Source: a virus
Lineage: Duplodnaviria > Heunggongvirae > Uroviricota > Caudoviricetes
Virus record (IMG/VR): IMGVR_UViG_2778261513_000009
Span: 1-33,995 of that record
Direction: 5' to 3' (one strand)
Length of the DNA stretch: 33,995 nt
A model generated the notes under the pieces. It worked only from the letters and a program-made list of their open reading frames with translations, had not been told where the DNA came from and searched no databases. A program made the position numbers and the translations under genes. Each line of letters starts with the position of its first letter. Position 1 is the stretch's first letter. Of this stretch, positions 1-33,995 are shown in pieces.

Positions 1-1362
1 ATGTTTAAACCGGAACTCCTTTCCCCGGCGGGAACGCTGAAAAATATGCGTTACGCTTTCGCTTATGGCGCAGATGCTGTTTATGCGGGCCAGCCGCGTT
101 ATTCCCTGCGTGTGCGCAACAACGAATTCAACCACGAAAATCTTCAGCTCGGCATCAATGAAGCCCACGCGCTGGGGAAAAAGTTTTATGTCGTGGTCAA
201 CATTGCACCGCACAACGCCAAGCTGAAAACCTTTATCCGTGACCTGAAACCGGTGGTGGAAATGGGGCCGGATGCGCTGATTATGTCCGATCCAGGGCTG
301 ATTATGCTGGTGCGTGAGCACTTCCCTGAAATGCCGATCCACCTTTCGGTGCAGGCTAACGCCGTGAACTGGGCGACGGTGAAATTCTGGCAGCAAATGG
401 GCCTGACCCGCGTGATCCTCTCTCGCGAGCTGTCGCTGGAAGAGATTGAAGAGATCCGCAATCAGGTGCCGGATATGGAGATCGAGATCTTCGTTCACGG
501 CGCGCTGTGCATGGCCTACTCCGGTCGCTGCCTGCTCTCTGGCTATATCAACAAGCGCGACCCGAACCAGGGCACCTGCACCAACGCCTGCCGCTGGGAG
601 TACAACGTCCAGGAAGGGAAAGAAGATGATGTTGGCAACATCGTACACAAGTACGAGCCGATTCCGGTGCAAAATGTTGAGCCGACGCTGGGTATCGGCG
701 CACCAACCGACAAAGTGTTTATGATCGAAGAGGCCCAGCGTCCGGGCGAGTATATGACCGCGTTTGAAGATGAGCACGGCACTTACATCATGAACTCGAA
801 AGATCTGCGCGCCATCGCCCATGTAGAACGCCTGACCAAAATGGGCGTGCATTCGCTGAAGATCGAAGGCCGTACTAAATCTTTCTACTATTGCGCACGC
901 ACCGCACAGGTTTATCGTAAAGCTATCGATGATGCCGCTGCGGGCAAACCGTTCGATACCAGCCTGCTGGAAACTCTGGAAGGTCTGGCGCATCGTGGCT
1001 ATACCGAAGGTTTCCTGCGTCGTCATACTCACGACGATTATCAGAACTACGAATACGGTTATTCGGTTTCTGACCGCCAGCAGTTTGTTGGTGAGTTTAC
1101 CGGTGAGCGCAAGGGGGACCTCGCGGCGGTAGCGGTGAAAAATAAATTCTCCGTTGGCGACAGCCTTGAGCTGATGACGCCGCAAGGCAACATTAATTTT
1201 ACCCTTGAGCACATGGAAAACGCCAAAGGCGAAGCTATGCCGATAGCACCAGGCGATGGTTATACTGTGTGGCTCCCGGTCCCGCAGGATCTTGAGCTCA
1301 ATTACGCGCTGCTGATGCGTAATTTCTCCGGGGAAACCACGCGTAATCCCCACGGTAAGTGA
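1..1362 (+). CDS. yegQ: Peptidase U32-family protein YegQ (RlhA, 23S rRNA 5-hydroxycytidine synthase), host gene
   Basis: Full-length 453-aa ORF whose translation (MFKPELLSPAGTLKNMRYAFAYGADAVYAGQPRY...) I recognise as E. coli YegQ; GC-rich host-like composition; lies immediately upstream of cyaR as in E. coli. Confidence 0.9.
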   Translation: MFKPELLSPAGTLKNMRYAFAYGADAVYAGQPRYSLRVRNNEFNHENLQLGINEAHALGKKFYVVVNIAPHNAKLKTFIRDLKPVVEMGPDALIMSDPGLIMLVREHFPEMPIHLSVQANAVNWATVKFWQQMGLTRVILSRELSLEEIEEIRNQVPDMEIEIFVHGALCMAYSGRCLLSGYINKRDPNQGTCTNACRWEYNVQEGKEDDVGNIVHKYEPIPVQNVEPTLGIGAPTDKVFMIEEAQRPGEYMTAFEDEHGTYIMNSKDLRAIAHVERLTKMGVHSLKIEGRTKSFYYCARTAQVYRKAIDDAAAGKPFDTSLLETLEGLAHRGYTEGFLRRHTHDDYQNYEYGYSVSDRQQFVGEFTGERKGDLAAVAVKNKFSVGDSLELMTPQGNINFTLEHMENAKGEAMPIAPGDGYTVWLPVPQDLELNYALLMRNFSGETTRNPHGK

Positions 1363-1412: not shown

Positions 1413-1446
1413 TACAGCTGCATTTATTAAGGTTATCATCCGTTTC

Positions 1447-1533
1447 GCTGAAAAACATAACCCATAAAATGCTAGCTGTACCAGGAACCACCTCCTTAGC
1501 CTGTGTAATCTCCCTTACGCAGGCTTATTTTTT
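1447..1533 (+). ncRNA. cyaR: CyaR (RyeE) Hfq-dependent small RNA
   Basis: Sequence gctgaaaaacataacccataaaatgctagctgtaccaggaaccacctccttagcctgtgtaatctcccttacgcaggcttatttttt matches the cyaR sequence I recall, including the terminal hairpin and U-run; sits between yegQ and ogr as expected. Confidence 0.85.
1512..1533. repeat. attL core: left copy of the 22-bp imperfect direct repeat (cccttacgcaggcttatttttt) inside the cyaR terminator
   Basis: Matches 33498-33519 (cccttacacgggcttatttttt) at 20 of 22 positions. The right copy is the reverse complement of the P2 core AAAAAATAAGCCCGTGTAAGGG as I remember it. Confidence 0.7.
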
Positions 1534-3575: not shown

Positions 3576-6014
3576 TCAGTCGAGTCTCATGTTGGATCGC
3601 TGACGCGCGCGCTTTTCACGGTCAAGTTTGTCGACGGCGTCGCGGAGCTGGCGGTCAAGGTCACCACCCGGCGCAACGCCACCCTGCAGGGTGATGTTGT
3701 ATTCGCTTTTGCTCTGGTCGATATAAGAGCGACCTGCAGGCGCAGTGACCGGCTGATACGCCTGATACCCACCATAACTCGCTGTCGCAGGGATATACCC
3801 GCCACCCGGTGAAGCCTTATCCGCGTTGGCTGCAGTCTGGTCGAGGTCGGTCGATTCTTTTTTGATAACGCCGAGTTTCTCCAGCAGCCAGTCAACCTTG
3901 CCGCTCAGGCTGTTAAACAGGTTGAGCGGCGTAATCAGCGCATCAGCCAGCGCCTGACCAAACGCCACGCCGACATTTTTGCAACTGTCGAGCGTGTCCT
4001 GCGTGGCTTTCACCGGTGCAAGCAGGTCTTTAAACCACTGGCAGACAACACCCAGCTTTTCCGCAATGGCATCAAACACCGGCGCAAGCGGGGTAAACAT
4101 TTCCCCCACCGGGGCAAAGGCGGCTTTTAGCCCCTCCACCACACCCGAGAAGAATGCGCCAATCGGCTCCCAGTATTTACGGATGAGCAGCGCACTGGCC
4201 ACCACCGCCCCGGCAACCGCCAGTACCGGCAGACTGATTGCGCCAATGGCCGTGACAATCGCGCCGCCGACCGTACTGAAAACCACACCGAGCACGCCAG
4301 CCGCCGCAATGATGGCATTAATCCCCATCACCACCGGCCATGCGATAAGGCCAATCCCGCCCATCACCCCGATCAGCGCCAGCGCGCCCCCGGCGACCAC
4401 GCCGAGGGTGGTCGCCAGCCCCTTATTTTTCTGGAGCCAGCCGTCAAGCCTGAGCACATACTGCGTGGCCGTCTGCGTCAGCTTACGCAGTGAGCCCTCC
4501 TGCTGGTCAAACAGGTCAGTCCCGACCGCCTCATAGGCTGACTGAAATTCTTTGAAGTCGCCGCCGAGGTTATCCTGCATAACCTTAACCAGCTCCTCAG
4601 TCTTGCCGTCCGAGGCTTTAAACGCGGCGGTGAGATTATCGAGCTTGCCGGTTGAGGCCGCCGTCATCAGCACGGCGGCCGCTGAGCTGGCCTCCTCCCC
4701 GAAAATGGTTTTCATGTATTCGGCTTTCTGGCCGGTTCCGAGATTATTTTTCTCAAAACTGCGCTGCATTTCTTTCAGGATGGAAAATATCGGGCGCGTG
4801 TTGCCCTTGCTGTCGGAGGTTTTGACCCCGAGCTCTTTGATGGCGTCGTAGGCTTTGCCGGTCGGTGCCTGCAGGCGACTCATGACCGCACGGCTTCCCG
4901 TTCCCGCCATCGAGCCGGTGATTCTGGAGTCGTGCAGCGCCCCCACCATCGCGGCGGTTTCCTCGATACTCACCCCGGCATTTTTCGCCACCGGCGCGGC
5001 ATAAGTCAGCGCATCGCTCATCCCGTCAAAATCGGCGGCGGTTTTGTTCATCGTCATCGAGAGAACATCGCCAATATGCGCGACCTTGTCGTTTGAAAGC
5101 TGAAACGCTGATTTCATCCCGGTCAGCAGCGCGGCGTTCTCTTCCATCGTGCGCCTGTTGGACAGCGCCATATTCAGCGTGACCGGCGTCGCCGCCTGAA
5201 TGGCCGCCGCATCCCCGCCACTTTTGGCGATAATAATCTGCGCCCCCGCCGCATCATCGGCAGAGGCCGCCGTATTGTCCCCGAGCTGGCGCGCCTGTTT
5301 GCGCAGCGCCTGCATTTCGGGTGACTGTTTGTCGACACCGAGCACCGCCTGCAGCTCTGAGTTCTTCTGCGCAAACTCATAGCCCGGCGTCAGCAGTTTA
5401 ACCCCGGCCATCGTTCCCGCCGTCGCAATACCGACACCGGCAGCGCCCGCCGCCGCGTTACCGGCCAGTGATTTACCGGCCTGATAACGTTCTTTCACCC
5501 GGCTTAACTTCGCCTGCTGTGCGCTGACTTTCGCCAGTGCCTCGCGCTGACGGTTGAGCTGGGCGGTGGTTTCACTGATACGGGATTTAAGCCCCCGCTC
5601 ATCATTTGCCAGATTACGGGTATTAATCCCCGCAGCACCGAGCTCGCGCTGCTGGCGCTTTATGGACTCCGTGAGGCTGTTGTATTTCGTCTGCAGCCCT
5701 TCGGCGGCACGCTTCGCGGATTCAAGTACCTGCGCCTGTGCGCGCGTCGGGCGCTCCGTATTTTTAAACTGCGTGGCGAGCGCTTCGGCCTCCTGTTTCG
5801 CTTTATCAAGCGCGTGACCGGTCACGGCAAGCTGTGCGCTGGCTTTTCGGAATCCGTCGATACGGGATGCCTGCGCATTCAGCTCGCGCAGGCTTTTCTG
5901 TGACGTGCGGATATCACCGGACAGGGATTTACTGGCGTTCTGAATCGCTTTGAGCGGTCGGCTTGCCCGGTCGACGGCATTCAGCAGCACCTCGATTCTG
6001 ACGTTATTGCTCAT
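3576..6014 (-). CDS. T: Tail tape measure protein T
   Basis: 812-aa ORF with a coiled-coil-rich N-terminal half and a Gly/Ala-rich hydrophobic segment; position after E/E' as in P2. Confidence 0.9.
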   Translation of the reverse strand: MSNNVRIEVLLNAVDRASRPLKAIQNASKSLSGDIRTSQKSLRELNAQASRIDGFRKASAQLAVTGHALDKAKQEAEALATQFKNTERPTRAQAQVLESAKRAAEGLQTKYNSLTESIKRQQRELGAAGINTRNLANDERGLKSRISETTAQLNRQREALAKVSAQQAKLSRVKERYQAGKSLAGNAAAGAAGVGIATAGTMAGVKLLTPGYEFAQKNSELQAVLGVDKQSPEMQALRKQARQLGDNTAASADDAAGAQIIIAKSGGDAAAIQAATPVTLNMALSNRRTMEENAALLTGMKSAFQLSNDKVAHIGDVLSMTMNKTAADFDGMSDALTYAAPVAKNAGVSIEETAAMVGALHDSRITGSMAGTGSRAVMSRLQAPTGKAYDAIKELGVKTSDSKGNTRPIFSILKEMQRSFEKNNLGTGQKAEYMKTIFGEEASSAAAVLMTAASTGKLDNLTAAFKASDGKTEELVKVMQDNLGGDFKEFQSAYEAVGTDLFDQQEGSLRKLTQTATQYVLRLDGWLQKNKGLATTLGVVAGGALALIGVMGGIGLIAWPVVMGINAIIAAAGVLGVVFSTVGGAIVTAIGAISLPVLAVAGAVVASALLIRKYWEPIGAFFSGVVEGLKAAFAPVGEMFTPLAPVFDAIAEKLGVVCQWFKDLLAPVKATQDTLDSCKNVGVAFGQALADALITPLNLFNSLSGKVDWLLEKLGVIKKESTDLDQTAANADKASPGGGYIPATASYGGYQAYQPVTAPAGRSYIDQSKSEYNITLQGGVAPGGDLDRQLRDAVDKLDREKRARQRSNMRLD

Positions 6015-8387: not shown

Positions 8388-8966
8388 TTATGCGGGCAGT
8401 TCCGGCCATGTGATATCGGGTGCATCTTCGGGTTTGACCCTGTTGAGCATGACCCGATATTTTTTCCATTCATTAAGCGCGGTCGCTTCGTCTTCCGTTG
8501 CCATATCCAGATCAACGGCATCCTGCAGGGGGGCAATAGCCGATGTTGCAATCATCAGCAGGTTTGCTTTTTCCTGCGCCGCCAGCCCCTGACGAAATGT
8601 TTTTTCCGCTTCGGCATCGTGGATCCACTTAGCGCCATCCCATTTTACATACTCCCCGTCAGGAGCAACCGACACAACGTTATCAGGCAGAGCGCCCAGC
8701 TTTTCAATAACAACAGGCTGGCCTGTCTCGATGTCGTAGACAGTTGTCCCGCGATGGTCTTCAGTCTGCGACCACTTGCTGGCCTGTGCATCAAAAACAG
8801 CCACAAAACCCGCCGTCACTTTTGGGGGCGCAATATCGGTGCTGTATGCAGGCAGGCCTGTATTAGCCGGAATAAAGCCATCCCCTTTACCGATAAACTC
8901 ATTCGTGGCCGATGACAGGTTGTAAATCGTAATAACCCGGTTGGTGCTGGTCATTTTAAAAGCCAT
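8388..8966 (-). CDS. G: Tail fibre assembly protein G
   Basis: 192-aa ORF directly after the tail fibre gene; its ATG overlaps the H stop (TAATGG). Confidence 0.8.
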   Translation of the reverse strand: MAFKMTSTNRVITIYNLSSATNEFIGKGDGFIPANTGLPAYSTDIAPPKVTAGFVAVFDAQASKWSQTEDHRGTTVYDIETGQPVVIEKLGALPDNVVSVAPDGEYVKWDGAKWIHDAEAEKTFRQGLAAQEKANLLMIATSAIAPLQDAVDLDMATEDEATALNEWKKYRVMLNRVKPEDAPDITWPELPA

Positions 8967-10654
8967 TATGCAAGCCTCACTAAATAATTAAATGCGGTGT
9001 TTTTTACGGTGTTTTCTGCATTGCCCTCAGCATTGACCGTAATTGCGTGGTTGTGTGCGCCCAAAACAACATTATGGGTGTGAGCGCCGATGCCAACTGT
9101 ATGAGTATGAGCACCGATACCGACTGTATGGGCATGGTTGCCAGAGGTGCCTGTATTCAGGGTTCCCGTACCTGCCAATGCCTGGTTCCGGTCGCCATCT
9201 TTAACAGTCGTTGACGTTGGGGCTGTGTATGTATGAGCATGCGCCCCTGTGGTATTCGTTGTTTTTGTACCGTAGTCAAATGAACTGGTTGTTTTTGTCC
9301 CGTAATCAAATGCAGTCGCGGCCTTCGTACCGAGATCTGTATTTGCAGATGATGCTGAGTGCCCATGCGACTTAATACCATCCTGCTCCAGTGATAAAAC
9401 TGCACGACCGCTGGCTGGTTTGCCTTTGATGGTCTGACCGCGCATATCAGGAATCACCCCGGAGGGATACGCCACTGCAAGCAACGGATAGACTGATTTA
9501 TCAAAAGCCTGTCCCTGCATTAATCCATACCCTGCCGGGGGTGTATCAGACGGCCACGGAATCGGCGCCCCAACAGGAAAAGCATCATCGGGTGTCCACA
9601 TCGTCCACCGCTGCGTGGAATACTTGCTGCGTGAGTAGCTTCGTGAACTGCCATACACGCGATAAACCTGAGTCACTCCGGCACTTTTAAGTACCATCAG
9701 GGAGCCCGCTCTATTCTCCGGGTAATTCAGTGCTGCACTGGTATTCGCATTCATTGTCTGGTGATACAGACCCGGCGTCTGGTAATTATCCAGATTCTGG
9801 TCAGCACCAAGCTCGGTACACTGACCGTCAAAAATATCCTGTGAAGTGACGCTGATATCGCCCGTCAGCGGGTGTCCGTTAACGTTTCGCTCAGACGGGA
9901 CGCGACCATTCGCATTATCATTCACCGCCTTAACCGCTTTCGGCGTTGCGGCGAGCGCCTCAGACGTGCTGTCGGTGGCACTGCTGAGTTTCACCAGACC
10001 TTTCTGCGCTGTGCTCGCGTCCTGAGCCGTATATTTACCACTGGCAAGGTCATACACCGCCTTAACCGCTTTCGGCGTCGCTGCGAGACTCTCAGACGTG
10101 CTGTCGGTCGCATTGCTGAGTTGTACAAAGCCTTTTTCTTTCAGCGTGGCGTCAGGATGCCTGCGGGACTGCTCATGCTCTGCCAGTTTGTCGTCGACAT
10201 AATCCTGCGTCGCCATGACCGTTGTCGCGTCAATGGACAGCTCCACCGAGGCGATACTGCTGACAATAATCACCATGCGACAGGTCTGCGCACGCCCCGA
10301 GCCCTCCGCCAGCTCCGGCTTGTAGCTCTCCGCCATATTGGCAACGGCTATCAGCGTGCCTGCGTCATCATACAGACCCAGCTCACGCATCCAGAAGCCG
10401 CCCACCTCGGGAGGAATGACCAGCTCAGCCACGATATAGTTTTTATTTTTGTTGTCCTGGCTGATTTTATTCAGCGCATGACGCCAGACTTCATTGATGA
10501 GTTTTACCTGCCCGACGTTCGGCTCCGGCAGTGCGTCGCCGCCATCACCGACGGCCATCGCGGTAAGGTTCACTTTTTTACCACCCGGCACCGTCGCCGC
10601 CGCCAGTTTTGCAGCTCCGGCAGTGGTAATGATTGTTTTAAATTTCGTGCTCAT
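8966..10654 (-). CDS. H: Tail fibre protein H
   Basis: 562-aa ORF with a conserved N-terminus ([24 protein letters not shown]...), internal duplicated '[18 protein letters not shown]' segments and a C-terminal His-rich repeat ([30 protein letters not shown]). Confidence 0.85.
9923..9990. repeat. 68-bp imperfect direct repeat inside gene H, copy 1 (copy 2 at 10055-10122, offset 132 bp)
   Basis: caccgccttaaccgctttcggcg...cagacgtgctgtcggt...gctgagtt recurs with a few mismatches; encodes the duplicated [18 protein letters not shown] peptide. Confidence 0.7.
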
Positions 10655-13090: not shown

Positions 13091-13305
13091 AGATAAAGGA
13101 TGCCGAGGGGCAGAGAATCCAGCAACAAAATGGAGTTTGATGAGAGCTAAGACAACATACCCTAATACTATCTATCATTGATGAAAGCACATCAGAGCAA
13201 TGATGCTATTGTGAGCTAGCGCGAATTATCAACTTCCGCTTTTGCGGTAGGAATGCATATGTTTAAAATGTTATATTCAAGAAAAAATTGACTGAGAGAT
13301 CTTTA

Positions 13306-14502
13306 ATGTTTGATTCGATAGTATTAAAACGCTCAATAGATGGCCCAACATTGACGATTGGCGAAATTGCTGAAGCATTAATTTTCTATCAAAATGTTCA
13401 CGTTGTAATGGACACATCAACCCTCCTCGGCATCATTAGAGAAATAGGGAGCCATAATGTAATCAAGTTATTAACACTCCCTGGTATAAAAACTACTTTC
13501 ATTGAGGAGTTCGTAGGTGTGTATGGCCAAGACACGTACCATGGAAAAGAGTACGCATTAATAAGCGCTTACTTTGCCGGAAGTGAAACAGATGGGGAAT
13601 TAAAAAGCTGGAAAAAAAGATTGGCAAACATGATTTCACGCCAAGGTTATAGCAAAGTTGAATCTGACAATTTTGTCGAAAGATTCAAAAGATGCGTAAC
13701 GTTAAAGAAACTCTCCAGCGACTACTTCATTAAAGGCGGTATAATATCAGCTGCACGTAGTGATTTAAATGATAGTGATTTCGTTTCATCGGCCGCACTC
13801 ATTATCTTGGAAGATTTATTACCTAAAGAGGAAATTACGAGCGACCTCTTTTATAAAACATTCCCAACCAGAGAAACCTTCCAAATCTCGACAAATATTA
13901 ATTTTGAAAAAATAAACAACTATAATGCTAATAAATTCTCTGACATTGGTGAAACAACCCCTGCAAGCATTGCAGCGGGAATCCTTAGCGCTTCATACGG
14001 ACTTATTTTAGCTGCTCACTACGGTGGCGATTTCTATACATCAGCGACAGACTCAAAGATCATTCAGTTCAAAAATAAACAACTACTCACCAGAACTAAC
14101 GCAAACCGTAAAGAACTAGAAACCTTCAATGAGGTGATTTTGAAGGATTGCCCAAATATATCCTCAATCATAAATAAAAAAGAACGTTCCTTTGAGGAAT
14201 TTTTAGAGTTACTTTCAAAAGCTAATAAATTTAAAAACTGGCTAAAAAACAAATCCCCAGATAAAAATCTTCTATCGAACTATGTTGATGATATTTCGAA
14301 AACAGGATGGATGGGAAGTAGTTATGGGAAGGCCTTACGTTACATTGTAAGTACTGGTGCAGGAATCATTAGCCCAGCGAGCGGACTTGCCATATCCGCA
14401 CTAGATACATTTTTATTAGACAGACTTAGCGCAGGCTGGAAACCAAATCAATTCGTCACATCAAAACTAAAACCTTTTGTTGATGTTAATGATGAATTTT
14501 AA
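13306..14502 (+). CDS. Hypothetical 398-aa protein of unknown function (AT-rich cargo gene between V and S, opposite strand)
   Basis: Long uninterrupted ORF in a markedly AT-rich segment (GC-rich backbone on both sides), antisense to the late operon and followed by its own hairpin terminator. I recognise no family. The ORF track starts at TTG 13288; ATG 13306 is the likely start. Confidence 0.6.
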   Translation: MFDSIVLKRSIDGPTLTIGEIAEALIFYQNVHVVMDTSTLLGIIREIGSHNVIKLLTLPGIKTTFIEEFVGVYGQDTYHGKEYALISAYFAGSETDGELKSWKKRLANMISRQGYSKVESDNFVERFKRCVTLKKLSSDYFIKGGIISAARSDLNDSDFVSSAALIILEDLLPKEEITSDLFYKTFPTRETFQISTNINFEKINNYNANKFSDIGETTPASIAAGILSASYGLILAAHYGGDFYTSATDSKIIQFKNKQLLTRTNANRKELETFNEVILKDCPNISSIINKKERSFEEFLELLSKANKFKNWLKNKSPDKNLLSNYVDDISKTGWMGSSYGKALRYIVSTGAGIISPASGLAISALDTFLLDRLSAGWKPNQFVTSKLKPFVDVNDEF

Positions 14503-23283: not shown

Positions 23284-24396
23284 TTAACCAACCCTTGCTT
23301 TTTTATATGGACCACAACTCCAACTAAAGAAATTCTTACCTAACTTATACCATTTATCAGAAAGCACTGGTGTTAGGTGAGGATTATATTTTTTTAAACT
23401 TCCCTTTTGTATATATTTCAATGTATTGCTGAGCAAATTCTCTCCAAAACCATCATAACTTACACAAGCAGTGTTGCAGCTACAGCGTTTTGAGTCGATA
23501 TACTCACAATCATATTTTATATCAAGCTTCTTTAATATCGGACGCCAATATGCACCATGTTTTCGATCGAGTTCAAGGGCTGTTTTAAAATCAAAACCTT
23601 TTTTATGGTCAATGTAAAATTTTACTGATTCATCTACGGAGCAAAGATGCTTAAAGAAAATGAGAGATTTTTCTTTTTGTTGAAATTGACTTTGACTTCT
23701 TAATACATCTTCAATTGTCGATAAAGGAACTAGAGATTCTATTTCATGTACATCTAAAATCTCAACGAAACCTGAGCGAGTGATTTGTGAGCCCAAAAAA
23801 TGTGAGCAAGTACCCCCGAATGGGGCTCTAGGATGTTTTTTGTCATTATCCACAATACAAAAAACTATCTCATTATTTTGAATTGCACGCTCGAATACAT
23901 CCTTAGTACTACCCCCACCGCCATTTAGAGCGATAAAACCCATTTCGCAGCGAGATAAGTTAATACCTTCGGCATAATGAGCCGCTATAACTCTAAAAAA
24001 ATCAGAATCCAAAGGATTTTCACATACTATTTTCGTTTTTTGCAATTGTGCCGAGTCATTAAAATACAATGGACCACAAACAAATTTAAAAGATTCACCG
24101 TTCTGAACCCATCTAAATGATTTATCACTAATATTAAAGTCGACAGTTACATAAAATGAGACCTGGTTCAAGATAGCATAGTACTCTGTTAGACCCGACA
24201 AAGCCTCTTGCGCGTAACTTTTTGATGAAAGGCTATAAAGCCCGCTTTGATCATTGATAATAGTTTTAAAAAAAACCCTTGTCCCTATAACCAAGTGTTT
24301 TTGTTCAGCAAATGCCCGAAGTATATTCTCAACCGCTATGGCAAATGAATTATTTAGCACCTGCTCAGGTGTCGCATTTTCGATATGAATCAACAT
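23284..24396 (-). CDS. 370-aa protein with Toprim-like E...DxD core (putative nuclease effector), partner of the upstream ATPase
   Basis: Start codon 2 nt after the ATPase stop. Motifs read by eye: KIVCENPLDSDFF (E126), Gly-rich LNGGGGS, IVFCIVDNDKK (D183/D185) about 57 residues after the Glu, and a Cys-rich C-terminus. The Toprim assignment is unverified. Confidence 0.7.
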   Translation of the reverse strand: MLIHIENATPEQVLNNSFAIAVENILRAFAEQKHLVIGTRVFFKTIINDQSGLYSLSSKSYAQEALSGLTEYYAILNQVSFYVTVDFNISDKSFRWVQNGESFKFVCGPLYFNDSAQLQKTKIVCENPLDSDFFRVIAAHYAEGINLSRCEMGFIALNGGGGSTKDVFERAIQNNEIVFCIVDNDKKHPRAPFGGTCSHFLGSQITRSGFVEILDVHEIESLVPLSTIEDVLRSQSQFQQKEKSLIFFKHLCSVDESVKFYIDHKKGFDFKTALELDRKHGAYWRPILKKLDIKYDCEYIDSKRCSCNTACVSYDGFGENLLSNTLKYIQKGSLKKYNPHLTPVLSDKWYKLGKNFFSWSCGPYKKARVG

Positions 24397-24398
24397 AA

Positions 24399-25955
24399 CT
24401 ACTTACCAGAGAAAAAGCCAACCGGCCAATTTTGTAGGAAACCATTCTCGTCAAAATAAGATTTCTTAACTATGGTCTGCTGCTTTTCATCTTTTTCAAA
24501 TACCAGTATTGAAATATCATCCTGTGAAAGATTTTCATTTTCCTCAATATATTCACCAAGTGCTTCAATCATGGTCTGGCTATGTGTCTCAAAAATTATC
24601 TTCAAATCCACATTGTTTTCTTTTGCTTTAGTTACTACTTTTGCAAAAATACTTGCTAAATTATGTTGATATGACGGATGTAAATGCAATTCTGGCTGCT
24701 CAATGATAAATGTTATAGGTTTTCTAACCGTGGTAGCACGACGTTCTGTCTCAAGCCAAATGGCTGTAACTATCGGCAAAACCTGAGAGTAACCAAACCC
24801 CATATCACTAACATTATAGTTCTCACTATTTTCACCGGTATTTATTAAAATTGCAAAGTGAGAGCCACTTTGTTCAACCTTAATAATGAAATCAAAATTT
24901 AACTTTGTCCAATCTTCAAATTTTGATTTATCAGCCGGCCTTAATGAATTCAAAAGCATTGCAAGATTGGAACCAGTATGATCTATCTCATTAACCTGTA
25001 AATCTTGAAAGCGATAAAATCTTTCTGATGTAGCACGCAGTGGAGCTATGTACTTTACATTTCTGAATGAATCTGACAAGGATGTATTTATTATATCTAT
25101 AAGATTATTAATATTCCATCCAATTATAAATGGATATAACTCATTCATTATTTCATCATGTTGAAGTTCAAAGTTTCTACTAAAAACTTTTTGTTCCTTG
25201 AATAGAAAAGCAACTAATTTACTGGCGTACGCTTTGGGTATAAAGCCAATTCTTTTGAATGCCTCTGTCACTTGATTTATATCAGATTTAGTATGGAAAT
25301 ATTTCTTTATATATTTCGCTGCTGAATCAATAAATGACAATTCTAATGCCCTGTCATGCCTAGAATGTCTCAAATAGAATGATGTGCTTGGAGGAGGACT
25401 ATCTTCCTTACCCTTCAAAATTAGATTGGGTATGAACTGCCCAAGATTTTTAGCTATTATCCCATCACGCTCTATTGTTTTATCATCTGATTCAATGAGT
25501 AACTTAACATTACTGTTCTCATCCATTGAAATAAATATTGTTAAATCAGCCAATATAAGCTTAATCGTTTTTGTTTTTGTTTTTTTATCTTTAGAGTAAA
25601 CAGTCAACTCTGCTTCAACATCTGTTGGTTGCTTTGCTAAATCAGTAAAACGATAATATGTATATCTTTGTGAAACCTCTGGCGGAATTGAGAGTGAAAA
25701 ACTGAACGTAATTTCTTTTTTTTCAGAGTTTCGGGAAAGTACATCTGTAAAATCGCCAAAATCCACATATCGCCCATACCATAGTATTGGACCAGTAGTA
25801 TTTTCTTCTACAGATTGACGAAGTAAAGGAAATGTACGCAATAGGGAACTTTTACCACTGCTGTTCTTACCAACAAATACTGTAATTGGTTTTAAATCAA
25901 TAAAAGTTTTGTTGACAAAGCTCCTGAAGTTTTGAAGACCTATACCCTTAATCAT
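24399..25955 (-). CDS. ABC-type (AAA_15/AAA_21-like, OLD/AriA-like) P-loop ATPase, 518 aa
   Basis: Walker A VFVGKNSSGKSSLL; Walker B-like FIIEQPELHLHP; H-loop-like IFETHSQ. Start taken at ATG 25955 (MIKGIGLQNFRSF), which has GGAG 8 nt upstream; the ORF track extends to 26042 across the GC/AT junction. Confidence 0.8.
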   Translation of the reverse strand: MIKGIGLQNFRSFVNKTFIDLKPITVFVGKNSSGKSSLLRTFPLLRQSVEENTTGPILWYGRYVDFGDFTDVLSRNSEKKEITFSFSLSIPPEVSQRYTYYRFTDLAKQPTDVEAELTVYSKDKKTKTKTIKLILADLTIFISMDENSNVKLLIESDDKTIERDGIIAKNLGQFIPNLILKGKEDSPPPSTSFYLRHSRHDRALELSFIDSAAKYIKKYFHTKSDINQVTEAFKRIGFIPKAYASKLVAFLFKEQKVFSRNFELQHDEIMNELYPFIIGWNINNLIDIINTSLSDSFRNVKYIAPLRATSERFYRFQDLQVNEIDHTGSNLAMLLNSLRPADKSKFEDWTKLNFDFIIKVEQSGSHFAILINTGENSENYNVSDMGFGYSQVLPIVTAIWLETERRATTVRKPITFIIEQPELHLHPSYQHNLASIFAKVVTKAKENNVDLKIIFETHSQTMIEALGEYIEENENLSQDDISILVFEKDEKQQTIVKKSYFDENGFLQNWPVGFFSGK

Positions 25956-26327
25956 TCCTAGCTCCATTAGTTCAATAAAATCAATCGATTTTGAGACAAT
26001 CTTAATATCTTTGACAGGCGCGCGCAATGCTATCCCCGCCACGCCTGCCCGCTTAACGGGTCGCTTTTAATGCAGTTGCATGACCACACAGGATCCGCGC
26101 CAGCTCTGGCGGCGCGCGGCCAGAACGGGCAACCCTGACGCATGCAAAGCAATGCACCTGTTGCATGCGCGGCTAAAAAACCGGGAAATTGTGGGAAAAT
26201 GGCATAATAAAACCGGCTTTAATCGTGCCGGTTGAGGTTGGTCTCTACGGGACAGGCTAACGCCTCGCGGGGCTCGTTGTTCAACCCCGCAGGCACTGAA
26301 AACAAGTTTCAGCACCGGCGGCGTTTG

Positions 26328-27033: not shown

Positions 27034-29319
27034 TTACTCCTCTTGCATTGAGAATCCCGGCCACTCATCAGCAGCCGCGTATTTGAATTTTTTATCGCCA
27101 TAAATCACCGTTGCCCCACGCGCCAGCGCTTCAAGCTCCCACCGTTCCGGGGTAATGCTCTCCTGAGCCAAATCGAAACGAATTTTCGCTATGCGATCCC
27201 TTTCTGGTTTTGTCATCCTGGCTGATGGCGCTTGCTCGCTCGTTTTGAGTGGAGCATGGCTTCTTTGCTGGCGATTTTTGCGAGGGATACCAGCTTTTAA
27301 CGCGCCGTTAAGCACCTTCATGACGTCTGGCTCATTCCAGCCGATAACCCCGCGCTCAATCAGATTTAACACCGCTGCGGCTTGCTCAGACGGTGTGGGT
27401 GTCATAACTGGAGCATCACCGCCGGTGAGCTTTCCACAGTTATTGACAGGACTCCGAGGCGCGGCAGAGCCGCTTTTTAAGGTCAAAGGCTCAACGGCCA
27501 AAATCTTTGGAACAATGCGCCATTCGGCTGTACGGGTTACATGTATGCGACTCGCCCCGAGGTGAGGGGCATAAATGCCGACCACTCTCTCGATATCTTC
27601 CTCATATTCGTTGACCTCATCAGTCACCTTACGGGCGACCCTAACGGCCTGCGCATCACGCGGCATGTTTGCCCCACCCTGTGCGATGATATACAGGTTA
27701 AATTCACCTTCATCAGCAGCAGCCCGGACAGCCTCGACCCGGTCGTCAAACTCACTGGCGATACTCACGCCGCGCGGCAGCTTGCGCAGTTCGCGGTAAG
27801 CGCCCATTGTCGGTAGGCCAATTGGTTTAAACTGCGGGATGCGCCATGTAGACGCCCATGCAGTTACGGCTGCGGCGGTATCTTTCAGAGGCTTTCCGGT
27901 GTCGTGGTCGATCTGGCCGTCGAGTGCGTAGCCGTCGATATTTTTGGCAATGTATTTAGCGATATAACCCGCCGCACCGCCCTGATTAAGATGACGTGAC
28001 TCAAAGCGCTGTTTTGCCGCTCCCTTTTCGTGCCCGTCCTCTTTGAGAGCATAACGACGCATAATTTCGTTAATAGCTTTACGCTGACCGGGTTTGCAAA
28101 ACAGCATCATGTGCCAGTGTGGCGTCCCGTCGTGGTGCGGTTCGACAACACGCATCCCGTAAACCTCTAAATCGTTATCTTTGAAAGCGGTGCGTATCAG
28201 GCTCCAGATTCGGCACAGATAGCGCTGGCCGTCTTTGGGGGTAAATGCGGTTTCATTCCAGCCATGATTGAGCTACACAGTTTTGTTTTCACCTTTGCCG
28301 ACCTGTCGGGTCGGGTGATACTTCGATGGCGTGGTCAGCGTGATAAACATCCCCACGTCACCAACGCAGGCCGCGTAGCGTTCAATCCCGGCGATAGTGT
28401 TCATCAGTTCCATACGCCGTATTTCAGGGTTAGAAATACTCCCCATTACCTTACTGATGAGGTCGATACGTTCGCCGGTGACTTTGTTTTCCAGCTCGCA
28501 GGATTTCAGGTATTCGAGATTAGCCAGGCGGCGCGCGTGCACATCGCGGATCGCCATTTTGCTTGCGTAAGGTGAGCGGTCTTTGTTGACCTCGCCAGCC
28601 GCAATAAGCAGCGCCTCGCGCCAGCGCATCCGCTGCGCCTTGAGCTGGCTGACCCACCACTCATCTTTTATCAGACGGGAAATAGCAGAAAATGCCATGC
28701 GGATCGTCATCTGACCCTTACGGTATTTTTTCCAGTACATCGGGGTGAAGTTAAAAGCGCGAGCAATACCGGCCACCTGACCGTATAAATGCGCCTGCGC
28801 CTCATCGGTGAATAAAGTGTCTTTCCCGCCGTGCGCCTCCTCCCATGCGTCGCTTAACTCCTCGTATTTGCTCCAGAGTTGAGAAGCAATTCTGGCCGCA
28901 AACTTCTTAAGCTCTTTGTCATTCATATCCGGCAGGCGCACATACTGGTCACGCTCGGACAAAAAACCAATCGAGGCGGATTCATTCATTCCGCACAGCT
29001 CATTAACACGCTCAAGACGCGGCAGCAACTTGCGCTCAAACGTGTTTTTGAGGAAATACAGCCCACCCAAGGGGCTCTTTGTGCGGCGGATGAAGTTATA
29101 ACGCGAGGTAAACAGCGTTTGCAGGAAAAACGGCAGGCGATCAATCCGGTTTAAAACACCTTGCACCTGACGGAGTTCGGCACGTGTAAGGGGTCTGTCG
29201 CGGCCAACTGCCTCGCGGGATTTATTCCACGGATAAGCACCGACGAAATTATCACCGGTGCTTTTTGGTAGTGGCGGAGGTGGCGAGGGGGCAACGCGCC
29301 CCCGAGTTTCAACGGCCAT
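27034..29319 (-). pseudogene. A: Replication initiation protein A (rolling-circle HUH endonuclease) interrupted by an in-frame amber codon at 28273-28275
   Basis: ORFs 28273-29397 and 27034-28155 are in the same frame; the 117 nt between them has no stop other than TAG at 28273-28275. The joined product would be about 761 aa from ATG 29319, carrying the HUH motif (HWHMMLF) and a tandem-tyrosine motif (YIAKYIAK). Confidence 0.8.
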
Positions 29320-30937: not shown

Positions 30938-31129
30938 GTGAACAATCAAAAACTTAATGAATTAATTACCACTCTTGAACAAGCCGTAGCATTAATTGAG
31001 TCTCTACCAACCCCAATGGGTGACGTGGAAAAATCGAATCAAGTCGATGTATTGACAATTAAGTTAAGAGAATTAGCTCACTCAAAAAAACCAAATCATC
31101 TTCAAGGGTTTATTGATATAAACGACTAA
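30938..31129 (+). CDS. Small 63-aa predicted helical protein, convergent with the 139-aa gene (AT-rich cargo)
   Basis: GTG start with AAGAGG 6 nt upstream; AT-rich; stop overlaps the stop of the convergent 139-aa gene. Confidence 0.45.
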   Translation: MNNQKLNELITTLEQAVALIESLPTPMGDVEKSNQVDVLTIKLRELAHSKKPNHLQGFIDIND

Positions 31130-31545
31130 GCGTCTAATTCATGTGGTGCGGCTTTTTTGGGACGATGCGACCGCACCATCACATTAAAAATGTCATCCCA
31201 ATCATCTTTGCTCATTAGCGTAATACCCAGCTCCCGAGCCTTTTCTCTTACACAGCGCGCCAGATATAAACGATTATCAATACTTATCCCTATAGCCCTT
31301 TCTTTCATGCGGCCGTAGTTATCAGAAAGAAGCTGTATCAAGTCAAGGCGTAGTATTTCAACTGAGCCATCAGTGCTGCGAAAAACTAAATCATCACCAT
31401 CAATAAACACTGGTTCACTTTTGAGCTCTTCGCTACTCACCCACTTACGCAGACTTCGTGGAACAACAAGACTATTTGAAGGTGTCATTTCGTCTAATTC
31501 ACCACTGAATAAAGCCACTTTTATGGTTTTCAACTGATGTTCCAT
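31126..31545 (-). CDS. 139-aa hypothetical protein directly downstream of cox (AT-rich cargo)
   Basis: ATG 31545 with AAGGGGG ribosome-binding site; about 38% GC against a roughly 55% backbone; N-terminal segment LVVPRSLRKWV is faintly AbrB/SpoVT-like. Confidence 0.6.
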   Translation of the reverse strand: MEHQLKTIKVALFSGELDEMTPSNSLVVPRSLRKWVSSEELKSEPVFIDGDDLVFRSTDGSVEILRLDLIQLLSDNYGRMKERAIGISIDNRLYLARCVREKARELGITLMSKDDWDDIFNVMVRSHRPKKAAPHELDA

Positions 31546-31609
31546 TTCTACCCCCTTATGCCGACTGGTCAGCTAGCCATTCACAAACTGAGCGATGTAT
31601 TTCAACCGG

Positions 31610-31904: not shown

Positions 31905-31941
31905 TTAATTGCTCTTAATGGGGTTTAATTGCTCTTAATGG
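31905..31941. promoter_or_regulatory. Two 17-bp direct repeats ttaattgctcttaatgg spaced 20 bp apart (putative operator at the early promoter)
   Basis: Perfect copies at 31905-31921 and 31925-31941 in the cox-C divergent region; P2 C repressor is known to bind direct repeats flanking the early promoter. Confidence 0.55.
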
Positions 31942-31971
31942 TGATTCACCCATCGGAAAGATAAATCTACG

Positions 31972-33677: not shown

Positions 33678-33995
33678 TCACTCTCCACATTTGAATGTCA
33701 GACGAGCGACGCCATGTAATCCTGCACCTTCTGTCTTCAGGTCAACTATCTGCATTTTTTTGCCCTGAGTAACACAGAAATGGGCTGCATCATTTTTTAC
33801 TATATTTTCTGCACCAGATATTCTGCCCCTGGCTAAAGAAGCTTCGGCTTCGGTGTAGTATTGGTTATCGAGTTTACGCTGAATATTACTTTTATATGCA
33901 AGACCAAATTTACCGATACTTGTCTCATCATTATGCACAGCACAACCAGACATAATAAAAATACTAATTAATGATATAGCAGCTATCTTTTTCAT
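33678..33995 (-). CDS. yegR: Lipoprotein YegR (host gene)
   Basis: 105-aa ORF with signal peptide and lipobox (ISLISIFIMSGC); matches E. coli YegR as I recall it, and the cyaR...yegR synteny fits. Confidence 0.8.
   Translation of the reverse strand: MKKIAAISLISIFIMSGCAVHNDETSIGKFGLAYKSNIQRKLDNQYYTEAEASLARGRISGAENIVKNDAAHFCVTQGKKMQIVDLKTEGAGLHGVARLTFKCGE

Follow-up and report, generated by a model that had tools for sequence, protein, structure and literature searches.

Phage P2 carries its origin of replication within gene A itself, and the tyrosines of the gene product are catalytic (PMC3986222); the title of Liu et al. 1993 (cited in PMC5694545) calls gene A cis-acting. Laboratory Aam mutants of P2 have a single amber codon in A in an otherwise intact P2-type genome. 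They are expected to show no DNA replication in non-suppressing hosts. The cyaR gene is an insertion site for P2-like prophages in Escherichia coli W, B, and K-12, and the ogr-D′ remnant of K-12 lies at this attachment locus (PMC3032704).

The 33,995-base stretch of DNA analysed here (the window) is an E. coli chromosomal segment with a full-length P2-like prophage of about 32 kb at the same locus, and its gene A contains one amber codon. In K-12 only a small fragment is left, the end point of prophage decay, whereas this element is full-length with a single lesion, the earliest recognisable stage. It also resembles the laboratory Aam mutants, but the allele is a natural one in a wild prophage lineage and belongs to a different P2-like phage. 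Our analysis indicates that the amber codon is most likely a recent, ordinary pseudogenisation, the first step of prophage decay.

The Prophage and Its Insertion Site

The gene map was obtained by moving the annotation gene by gene from E. coli UTAK-6 (NZ_CP157151.1, bovine), the closest complete genome. It begins with ogr, D, U, T, E/E′, FII, FI, G, H, I, J, W, and V, and continues through an inserted gene to S, R, lysC/B, K, Y, X, L, M, N, O, P, and Q. Two cargo genes and two small open reading frames (ORFs) follow, then A, two DUF5405 genes, a DUF2732 gene, and B, and finally small ORFs, cox, the repressor gene C, and int. This is the gene order of P2, and it is flanked by att repeats, as in P2-like (Peduovirus-type) prophages; the coordinates of the main features are collected in Table 1.

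The element is bounded by two pairs of imperfect, att-like direct repeats (1507–1533/33493–33519 and 1582–1601/33552–33571). The left boundary repeat of the first pair begins at the end of cyaR, and its copy at the right end is a diverged 27-mer. Integration is at the cyaR 3′ end, for which the phage brings a substitute terminator.

The UTAK-6 prophage is 99.93% identical to the window over 34 kb (21 substitutions and two indels), with the same insertion site (cyaR/yegQ–yegR) and the same gene order; a sister prophage at this site in strain EC11 (NZ_CP027255.1) is about 95% identical. The host gene yegQ has nine substitutions within 205 bp (861–1065) relative to both UTAK-6 and EC11, with no amino acid difference. 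The cluster suggests a short tract acquired by recombination, or else a different host background; the prophage itself is nearly identical.

The 39 other coding sequences annotated in the UTAK-6 prophage were checked in the window and have no internal stop, nor does the tail-fibre H ORF, which was checked separately; the original prediction that almost every morphogenesis gene looks intact thus holds. One cargo gene (23284–24396) has a stop that differs from that of its UTAK-6 counterpart. ARAGORN detected no tRNA gene within the window, hence no window-encoded suppressor tRNA, and a phage-borne suppressor was rejected as a candidate on this result.

Table 1. Principal features of the prophage, its insertion site, and gene A (positions in the window)
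Feature	Position	Strand	Basis or remark
yegQ	1–1362	+	
cyaR sRNA gene	1445–1530		Rfam RF00112, 100 bits
Whole P2-like prophage, between yegQ/cyaR and yegR	1507–33519	.	Repeats and UTAK-6 gene comparison
yegR	33678–33995	-	
Gene A, P2-type HUH replication endonuclease (rolling-circle initiator)	27034–29319	-	Translation, 761 codons plus terminal stop
N-terminal fragment encoded by gene A, 348 aa, including motif 1	28273–29319	-	
Motif 1 FITLT, codons 325–329, just ahead of the stop	28333–28347	-	
In-frame amber TAG, codon 349 of gene A	28273–28275	-	+ strand reads CTA
Downstream in-frame ORF from Met389, 373 aa, with HUH and tyrosine motifs	27034–28155	-	ORF list
HUH motif HWHMMLF, codons 401–407, past the stop	28099–28119	-	
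Tandem-tyrosine motif YIAKYIAK, codons 452–459, past the stop	27943–27966	-	
ori nick sequence GCGCCTCG/GAGTCCTGTCAA, gene A nt 1858–1877, codon 620	27443–27462	-	Exact single match

A Single Amber Codon within the Catalytic Domain of Gene A

Translation from 29319 to 27034 bears out the claim that the two halves of gene A share one frame and are split by the TAG: this is the single internal stop, and the rest of the frame is open. The codon differs from CAG (Gln) by a C to T transition on the coding strand, which corresponds to G to A at + strand position 28275. An ORF on the + strand (28264–28575) also covers the mutated base, which there changes CTG to CTA (Leu to Leu); it was considered as a gene and found to have no support.

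Like gpA of P2 (NP_046795.1), the gene A product when read without the stop has 761 amino acids, belongs to PF05840, and has the same three motifs of the HUH superfamily: an FxTLT-like motif 1, the HUH motif 2, and motif 3 with two tyrosines spaced YxxxY. All three lie in the gene A frame, and the stop parts motif 1 from motifs 2 and 3; the HUH and tandem-tyrosine motifs, which had been predicted to lie within this frame, do so, and both come after the stop. In the intact UTAK-6 allele the Pfam profile for Phage_GPA (PF05840) matches residues 135–464 over the whole domain (profile positions 1–321; 370.5 bits; E = 8.5e-111). The N-terminal fragment of the window gene matches profile positions 1–207 of 321 only (208 bits), and the ORF beginning at Met389 matches positions 241–321 of 321 only (106 bits). 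By these coordinates the single catalytic domain is interrupted by the stop after motif 1 and before the HUH motif, and the 348-residue fragment comprises an N-terminal region and the first two thirds of the GPA domain. Pfam also gave a weak hit to PF23343 (REP_ORF2-G2P). A search for PDB chains related by sequence to the gene A product detected none, the best hit being spurious (E = 0.33).

Relatives of this protein are encoded as one uninterrupted frame of about 760 codons (757–765 amino acids), which the window copy lacks. Because of the internal TAG at codon 349 we regard it as a pseudogene of the PF05840 family rather than a functional member.

The Met389 ATG is preceded by TTAGAGGTTTACGGG, with GAGG 8 nt upstream of the ATG. 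A product restarted at this codon is conceivable from the sequence, but it would be made without residues 1–388.

The replication origin has been retained. The 20-nt nick sequence has one exact match in the window, where none is expected by chance, and it lies inside gene A, as in P2-type replicons. The annotated nick site at ori in RefSeq P2 (NC_001895, position 29892) falls in the identical 20-mer, the equivalent base in the window being 27455, and the sequence occupies the same place in both genes (P2 codon 618, window codon 620). The site is intact and lies 810 nt downstream of the amber codon. The neighbourhood of A is shared with P2 as well (B, DUF2732, DUF5405, A, and an orf91-like DUF3850 gene). 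The two A genes differ in that they are only about 77% identical at the DNA level and in the nonsense codon of the window copy.

The Amber Codon Is Derived

The original prediction called for the ancestral codon to be sought in orthologous A genes, and the comparison gave a uniform answer: the codon is CAG in UTAK-6, S42, EC11, KV7, P2, and L-413C, and glutamine is aligned to codon 349 in seven of seven orthologues, Enterobacter phage ENT4 included. The residue (P2 codon 347) sits in a stretch, KTVQLNHGWN, that is strongly conserved across the aligned orthologues, and it is kept as far out as P2 and Yersinia phage L-413C, whose DNA is about 77% identical. The annotations of UTAK-6 and EC11, both of which have this CAG, list A as an intact replication endonuclease.

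Gene A is 99.9% identical to the gene for the UTAK-6 "replication endonuclease" (WP_347947819.1), with two nucleotide differences, one at 28275 (A in the window, G in UTAK-6; TAG versus CAG) and one at 28812 (Phe170 versus Leu170). Rooting on EC11, which is about 95% identical, places the TAG on the window lineage as a derived state and shows Phe170 to be ancestral, so that Leu170 arose in UTAK-6. The idea that A has undergone accelerated change in the window lineage was rejected for this reason. Over the whole prophage the lineage has acquired about five derived substitutions (2434, 21656, 25224, 28275, and 33086): two synonymous, two missense, and one nonsense. Roughly 4%–5% of random substitutions in coding sequence produce a stop codon, and to find a single nonsense change in five requires no special explanation.

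Gene A is also widespread. It matches 86 phage records, mostly Peduovirus and P2-like, and a homologue is present in 1,605 of 5,426 complete E. coli genomes; with about 30% of such genomes carrying A, lesions of this kind are to be expected.

Recurrence of the Amber across Independent Datasets

Amber-bearing loci were found by exact-sequence look-up of the truncated products and then compared base by base. Seven fetched loci, drawn from six independent NCBI and Logan datasets, share this TAG with the window. The NCBI locus (L007; GCA_002225595.1, contig NLHR01000182.1) and those from Logan SRR3993832 (L006) and SRR22535148 (L016) have the TAG; those from SRR9668754 (L008) and SRR13673771 (L015) combine it with an A to C change at 31550; and two loci from SRR17825277 (L009 and L014) combine it with the ancestral A at 25224. 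The loci thus fall into three haplotypes (window-identical, 31550C, and ancestral 25224A), two of which have private single-nucleotide polymorphisms (SNPs), and so they are not copies of one assembly. Since L009 and L014 have the TAG together with the ancestral 25224A, the amber is older than at least the 25224 change. Judged from these sequences, it is a real allele, inherited in a small clonal group of E. coli that is diversifying.

The truncated N-terminal product is on record as a 348-residue call on three contigs and as a 359-residue call of the same ORF on seven. The repaired window protein with Gln349 (P0031) has exact matches on 35 public contigs, and the exact UTAK-6 protein is found on 13. 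By these counts the immediate intact ancestor of the amber allele is still circulating and is commoner than the mutant. In the amber lineage no further decay was seen in A or in other genes (0–1 SNP per 6–17 kb compared); the elapsed time is too short for this absence to be informative either way.

The contigs of L006, L008, and L015, three independent short-read assemblies, all stop at window position 27436, 7 nt from the ori nick motif. A 44-nt block at ori is identical between the window and P2, and the breaks are likely to reflect a branch in the de Bruijn graph caused by a second P2-like prophage in those strains that shares this block.

Probable Consequences for the Phage and Alternative Explanations

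A recent CAG to TAG transition at codon 349 made A a pseudogene, which has since passed by vertical inheritance through a small E. coli clone. The 348-residue product is predicted to be unable to nick the intact ori, since neither the metal-binding HUH motif nor the pair of catalytic tyrosines is part of it; failure to nick would in turn abolish rolling-circle replication and productive lytic growth. From the gene structure we consider it very probable that the prophage cannot replicate autonomously. The suggestion that the amber is the lesion behind a replication defect fits the evidence well, in that the stop falls within the catalytic domain, before the HUH and tyrosine motifs, and A is the only disrupted gene among those checked, and the defect itself is what we infer from this.

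Because A of P2 acts in cis, a co-resident P2-like prophage should not rescue the defect. After derepression the element might at most be excised and lost, and no phage would be made. Normal P2 late transcription needs replication as well as Ogr, and for this reason virion production and lysis would be expected to fail too. The repressor and immunity functions, integrase and cox, the defence-type cargo, and the complete set of morphogenesis and lysis genes are all intact, so that protection of the host could persist. The prophage could in principle also help a P4-type satellite, which can turn on the P2 late genes without P2 replication.

The loss of A may have been favoured rather than accidental: it would disarm a potentially lethal prophage and keep its immunity, its defence cargo, and its capacity as a helper. 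Such selected domestication is compatible with the explanation preferred here and differs from it only in cause, selection instead of drift. The persistence of the allele across at least three haplotypes with all else intact, and the presence of a cargo gene for an NsnB-like/DUF3696 ATPase, would accord with it. We nonetheless consider selection unlikely, as the window lineage has about five derived substitutions in all and selection is not needed to account for one of them, and intact alleles are commoner than the mutant (35 plus 13 contigs versus about 10). To our knowledge P2-type phages are not inducible by the SOS response, and the cost of carrying an intact copy should accordingly be small.

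A related and distinctly improbable picture is that of a naturally maintained "disarmed helper", which neither replicates nor kills on its own and is kept for its immunity, its NsnB-like cargo, and its late genes, and which may escape now and then when glutamine is inserted at a low level at the UAG-C to give a few wild-type A proteins.

It is likewise improbable that the amber is functionally silent or leaky, with a suppressor tRNA or UAG readthrough by tRNA-Gln giving enough A protein for replication, perhaps attenuated. The ancestral residue is glutamine, which is also what supE-type suppression or near-cognate readthrough inserts; the codon stands in the context UAG-C, and a UAG with a 3′ C is not a strong termination context. 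Little A protein might suffice, given that A acts catalytically and in cis. Against this, the window encodes no suppressor tRNA, wild E. coli do not often carry amber suppressors, and the basal level of readthrough usually lies well under 1%. The classical A amber mutants of P2, moreover, are tight and do not grow on non-suppressing hosts.

We give very little credence to the idea that the 348-residue N-terminal fragment and the 373-residue fragment from Met389, jointly or separately, provide initiator activity, in the manner of the A* protein that phage phiX174 makes from an internal start. In its favour, the ORF beyond the stop shares the frame, opens after 118 nt behind a plausible ribosome-binding site, and keeps the HUH and tyrosine motifs. 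However, residues 349–388 (profile positions about 208–240) are missing from both pieces, a single folded domain is divided so that motif 1 is on one piece and motifs 2 and 3 are on the other, and all close relatives encode a single protein of 757–765 residues; as far as we know, A* of phiX174 does not itself initiate at ori. A sequencing or assembly error, with CAG as the true codon and gene A intact, was left as an escape route by the original prediction and would agree with the single-base difference from UTAK-6, the closest complete genome, but its probability is negligible now that the identical base has been found in seven loci from six independent datasets, and the change is a substitution and not a homopolymer indel.

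Taken as a recent pseudogenisation, the amber allele is a clean, datable case of the first step in prophage decay, in which one transition removes autonomous replication and leaves a 32-kb phage otherwise intact; intact ancestor and amber mutant both circulate in public genomes. Prophage-prediction tools would call the amber-bearing element intact, though it is probably unable to make phage. Strains that carry it would be natural A-minus helpers of the P2 type, potentially useful for helper-free P4 or cosmid particles. The gene A amber opens no new biological question.

Variable Slots and Repeats in the Prophage

The hotspot that holds tin and old in P2, between Q/cos and A, is occupied in the window by a two-gene cargo on the - strand (23284–26042), and downstream of A the two phages thus differ, a DUF3696/NsnB-like ATPase pair standing where P2 has tin/old. 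One product (547 aa) is an AAA_15/AAA_21/DUF3696 ATPase; its top PADLOC hit is NsnB (7e-55), with PDC-M55A, HEC-03B, and AriA ranked next. Its partner (370 aa) has no match in Pfam or PADLOC; the UTAK-6 version is shortened to 340 aa by the loss of 1 nt from a run of T (window position 23389). Strain S42 has a DUF262 gene in place of the two-gene cargo.

A second insertion, at a known P2 insertion position between the baseplate gene V and S, is an ORF of 404 aa encoded on the opposite strand (13288–14502, +). It has no Pfam or PADLOC match, and EC11 has a different, unrelated gene there.

The tail-fibre gene H (8966–10654, -) is one open ORF of 562 aa in both the window and UTAK-6, whereas RefSeq presents it in UTAK-6 and EC11 as several "incomplete" pseudogene pieces; this splitting is probably an annotation artefact of a mosaic fibre. 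Gene H contains an internal repeat (9905–10003 and 10037–10135) of 99 nt, with a 132-nt period and 82% identity. The product of the tape-measure gene T has 812 aa, versus 813 aa in UTAK-6, owing to an in-frame indel of 3 bp (GCC-type) at 5447, within a GC-rich repeat.

The interval between cox and the repressor gene C contains two tandem 20-nt direct repeats at 31905–31944 (TTAATTGCTCTTAATGGGGT and a copy ending in GGTGA), which resemble the paired operator half-sites of a P2-type immunity switch. Between cox and B (30938–31545), two small ORFs (63 aa on the + strand and 139 aa on the - strand) have no family match. Both are present in UTAK-6 and EC11 and absent from the S42 relative, a distribution that marks this region as another putative variable slot in the early operon.
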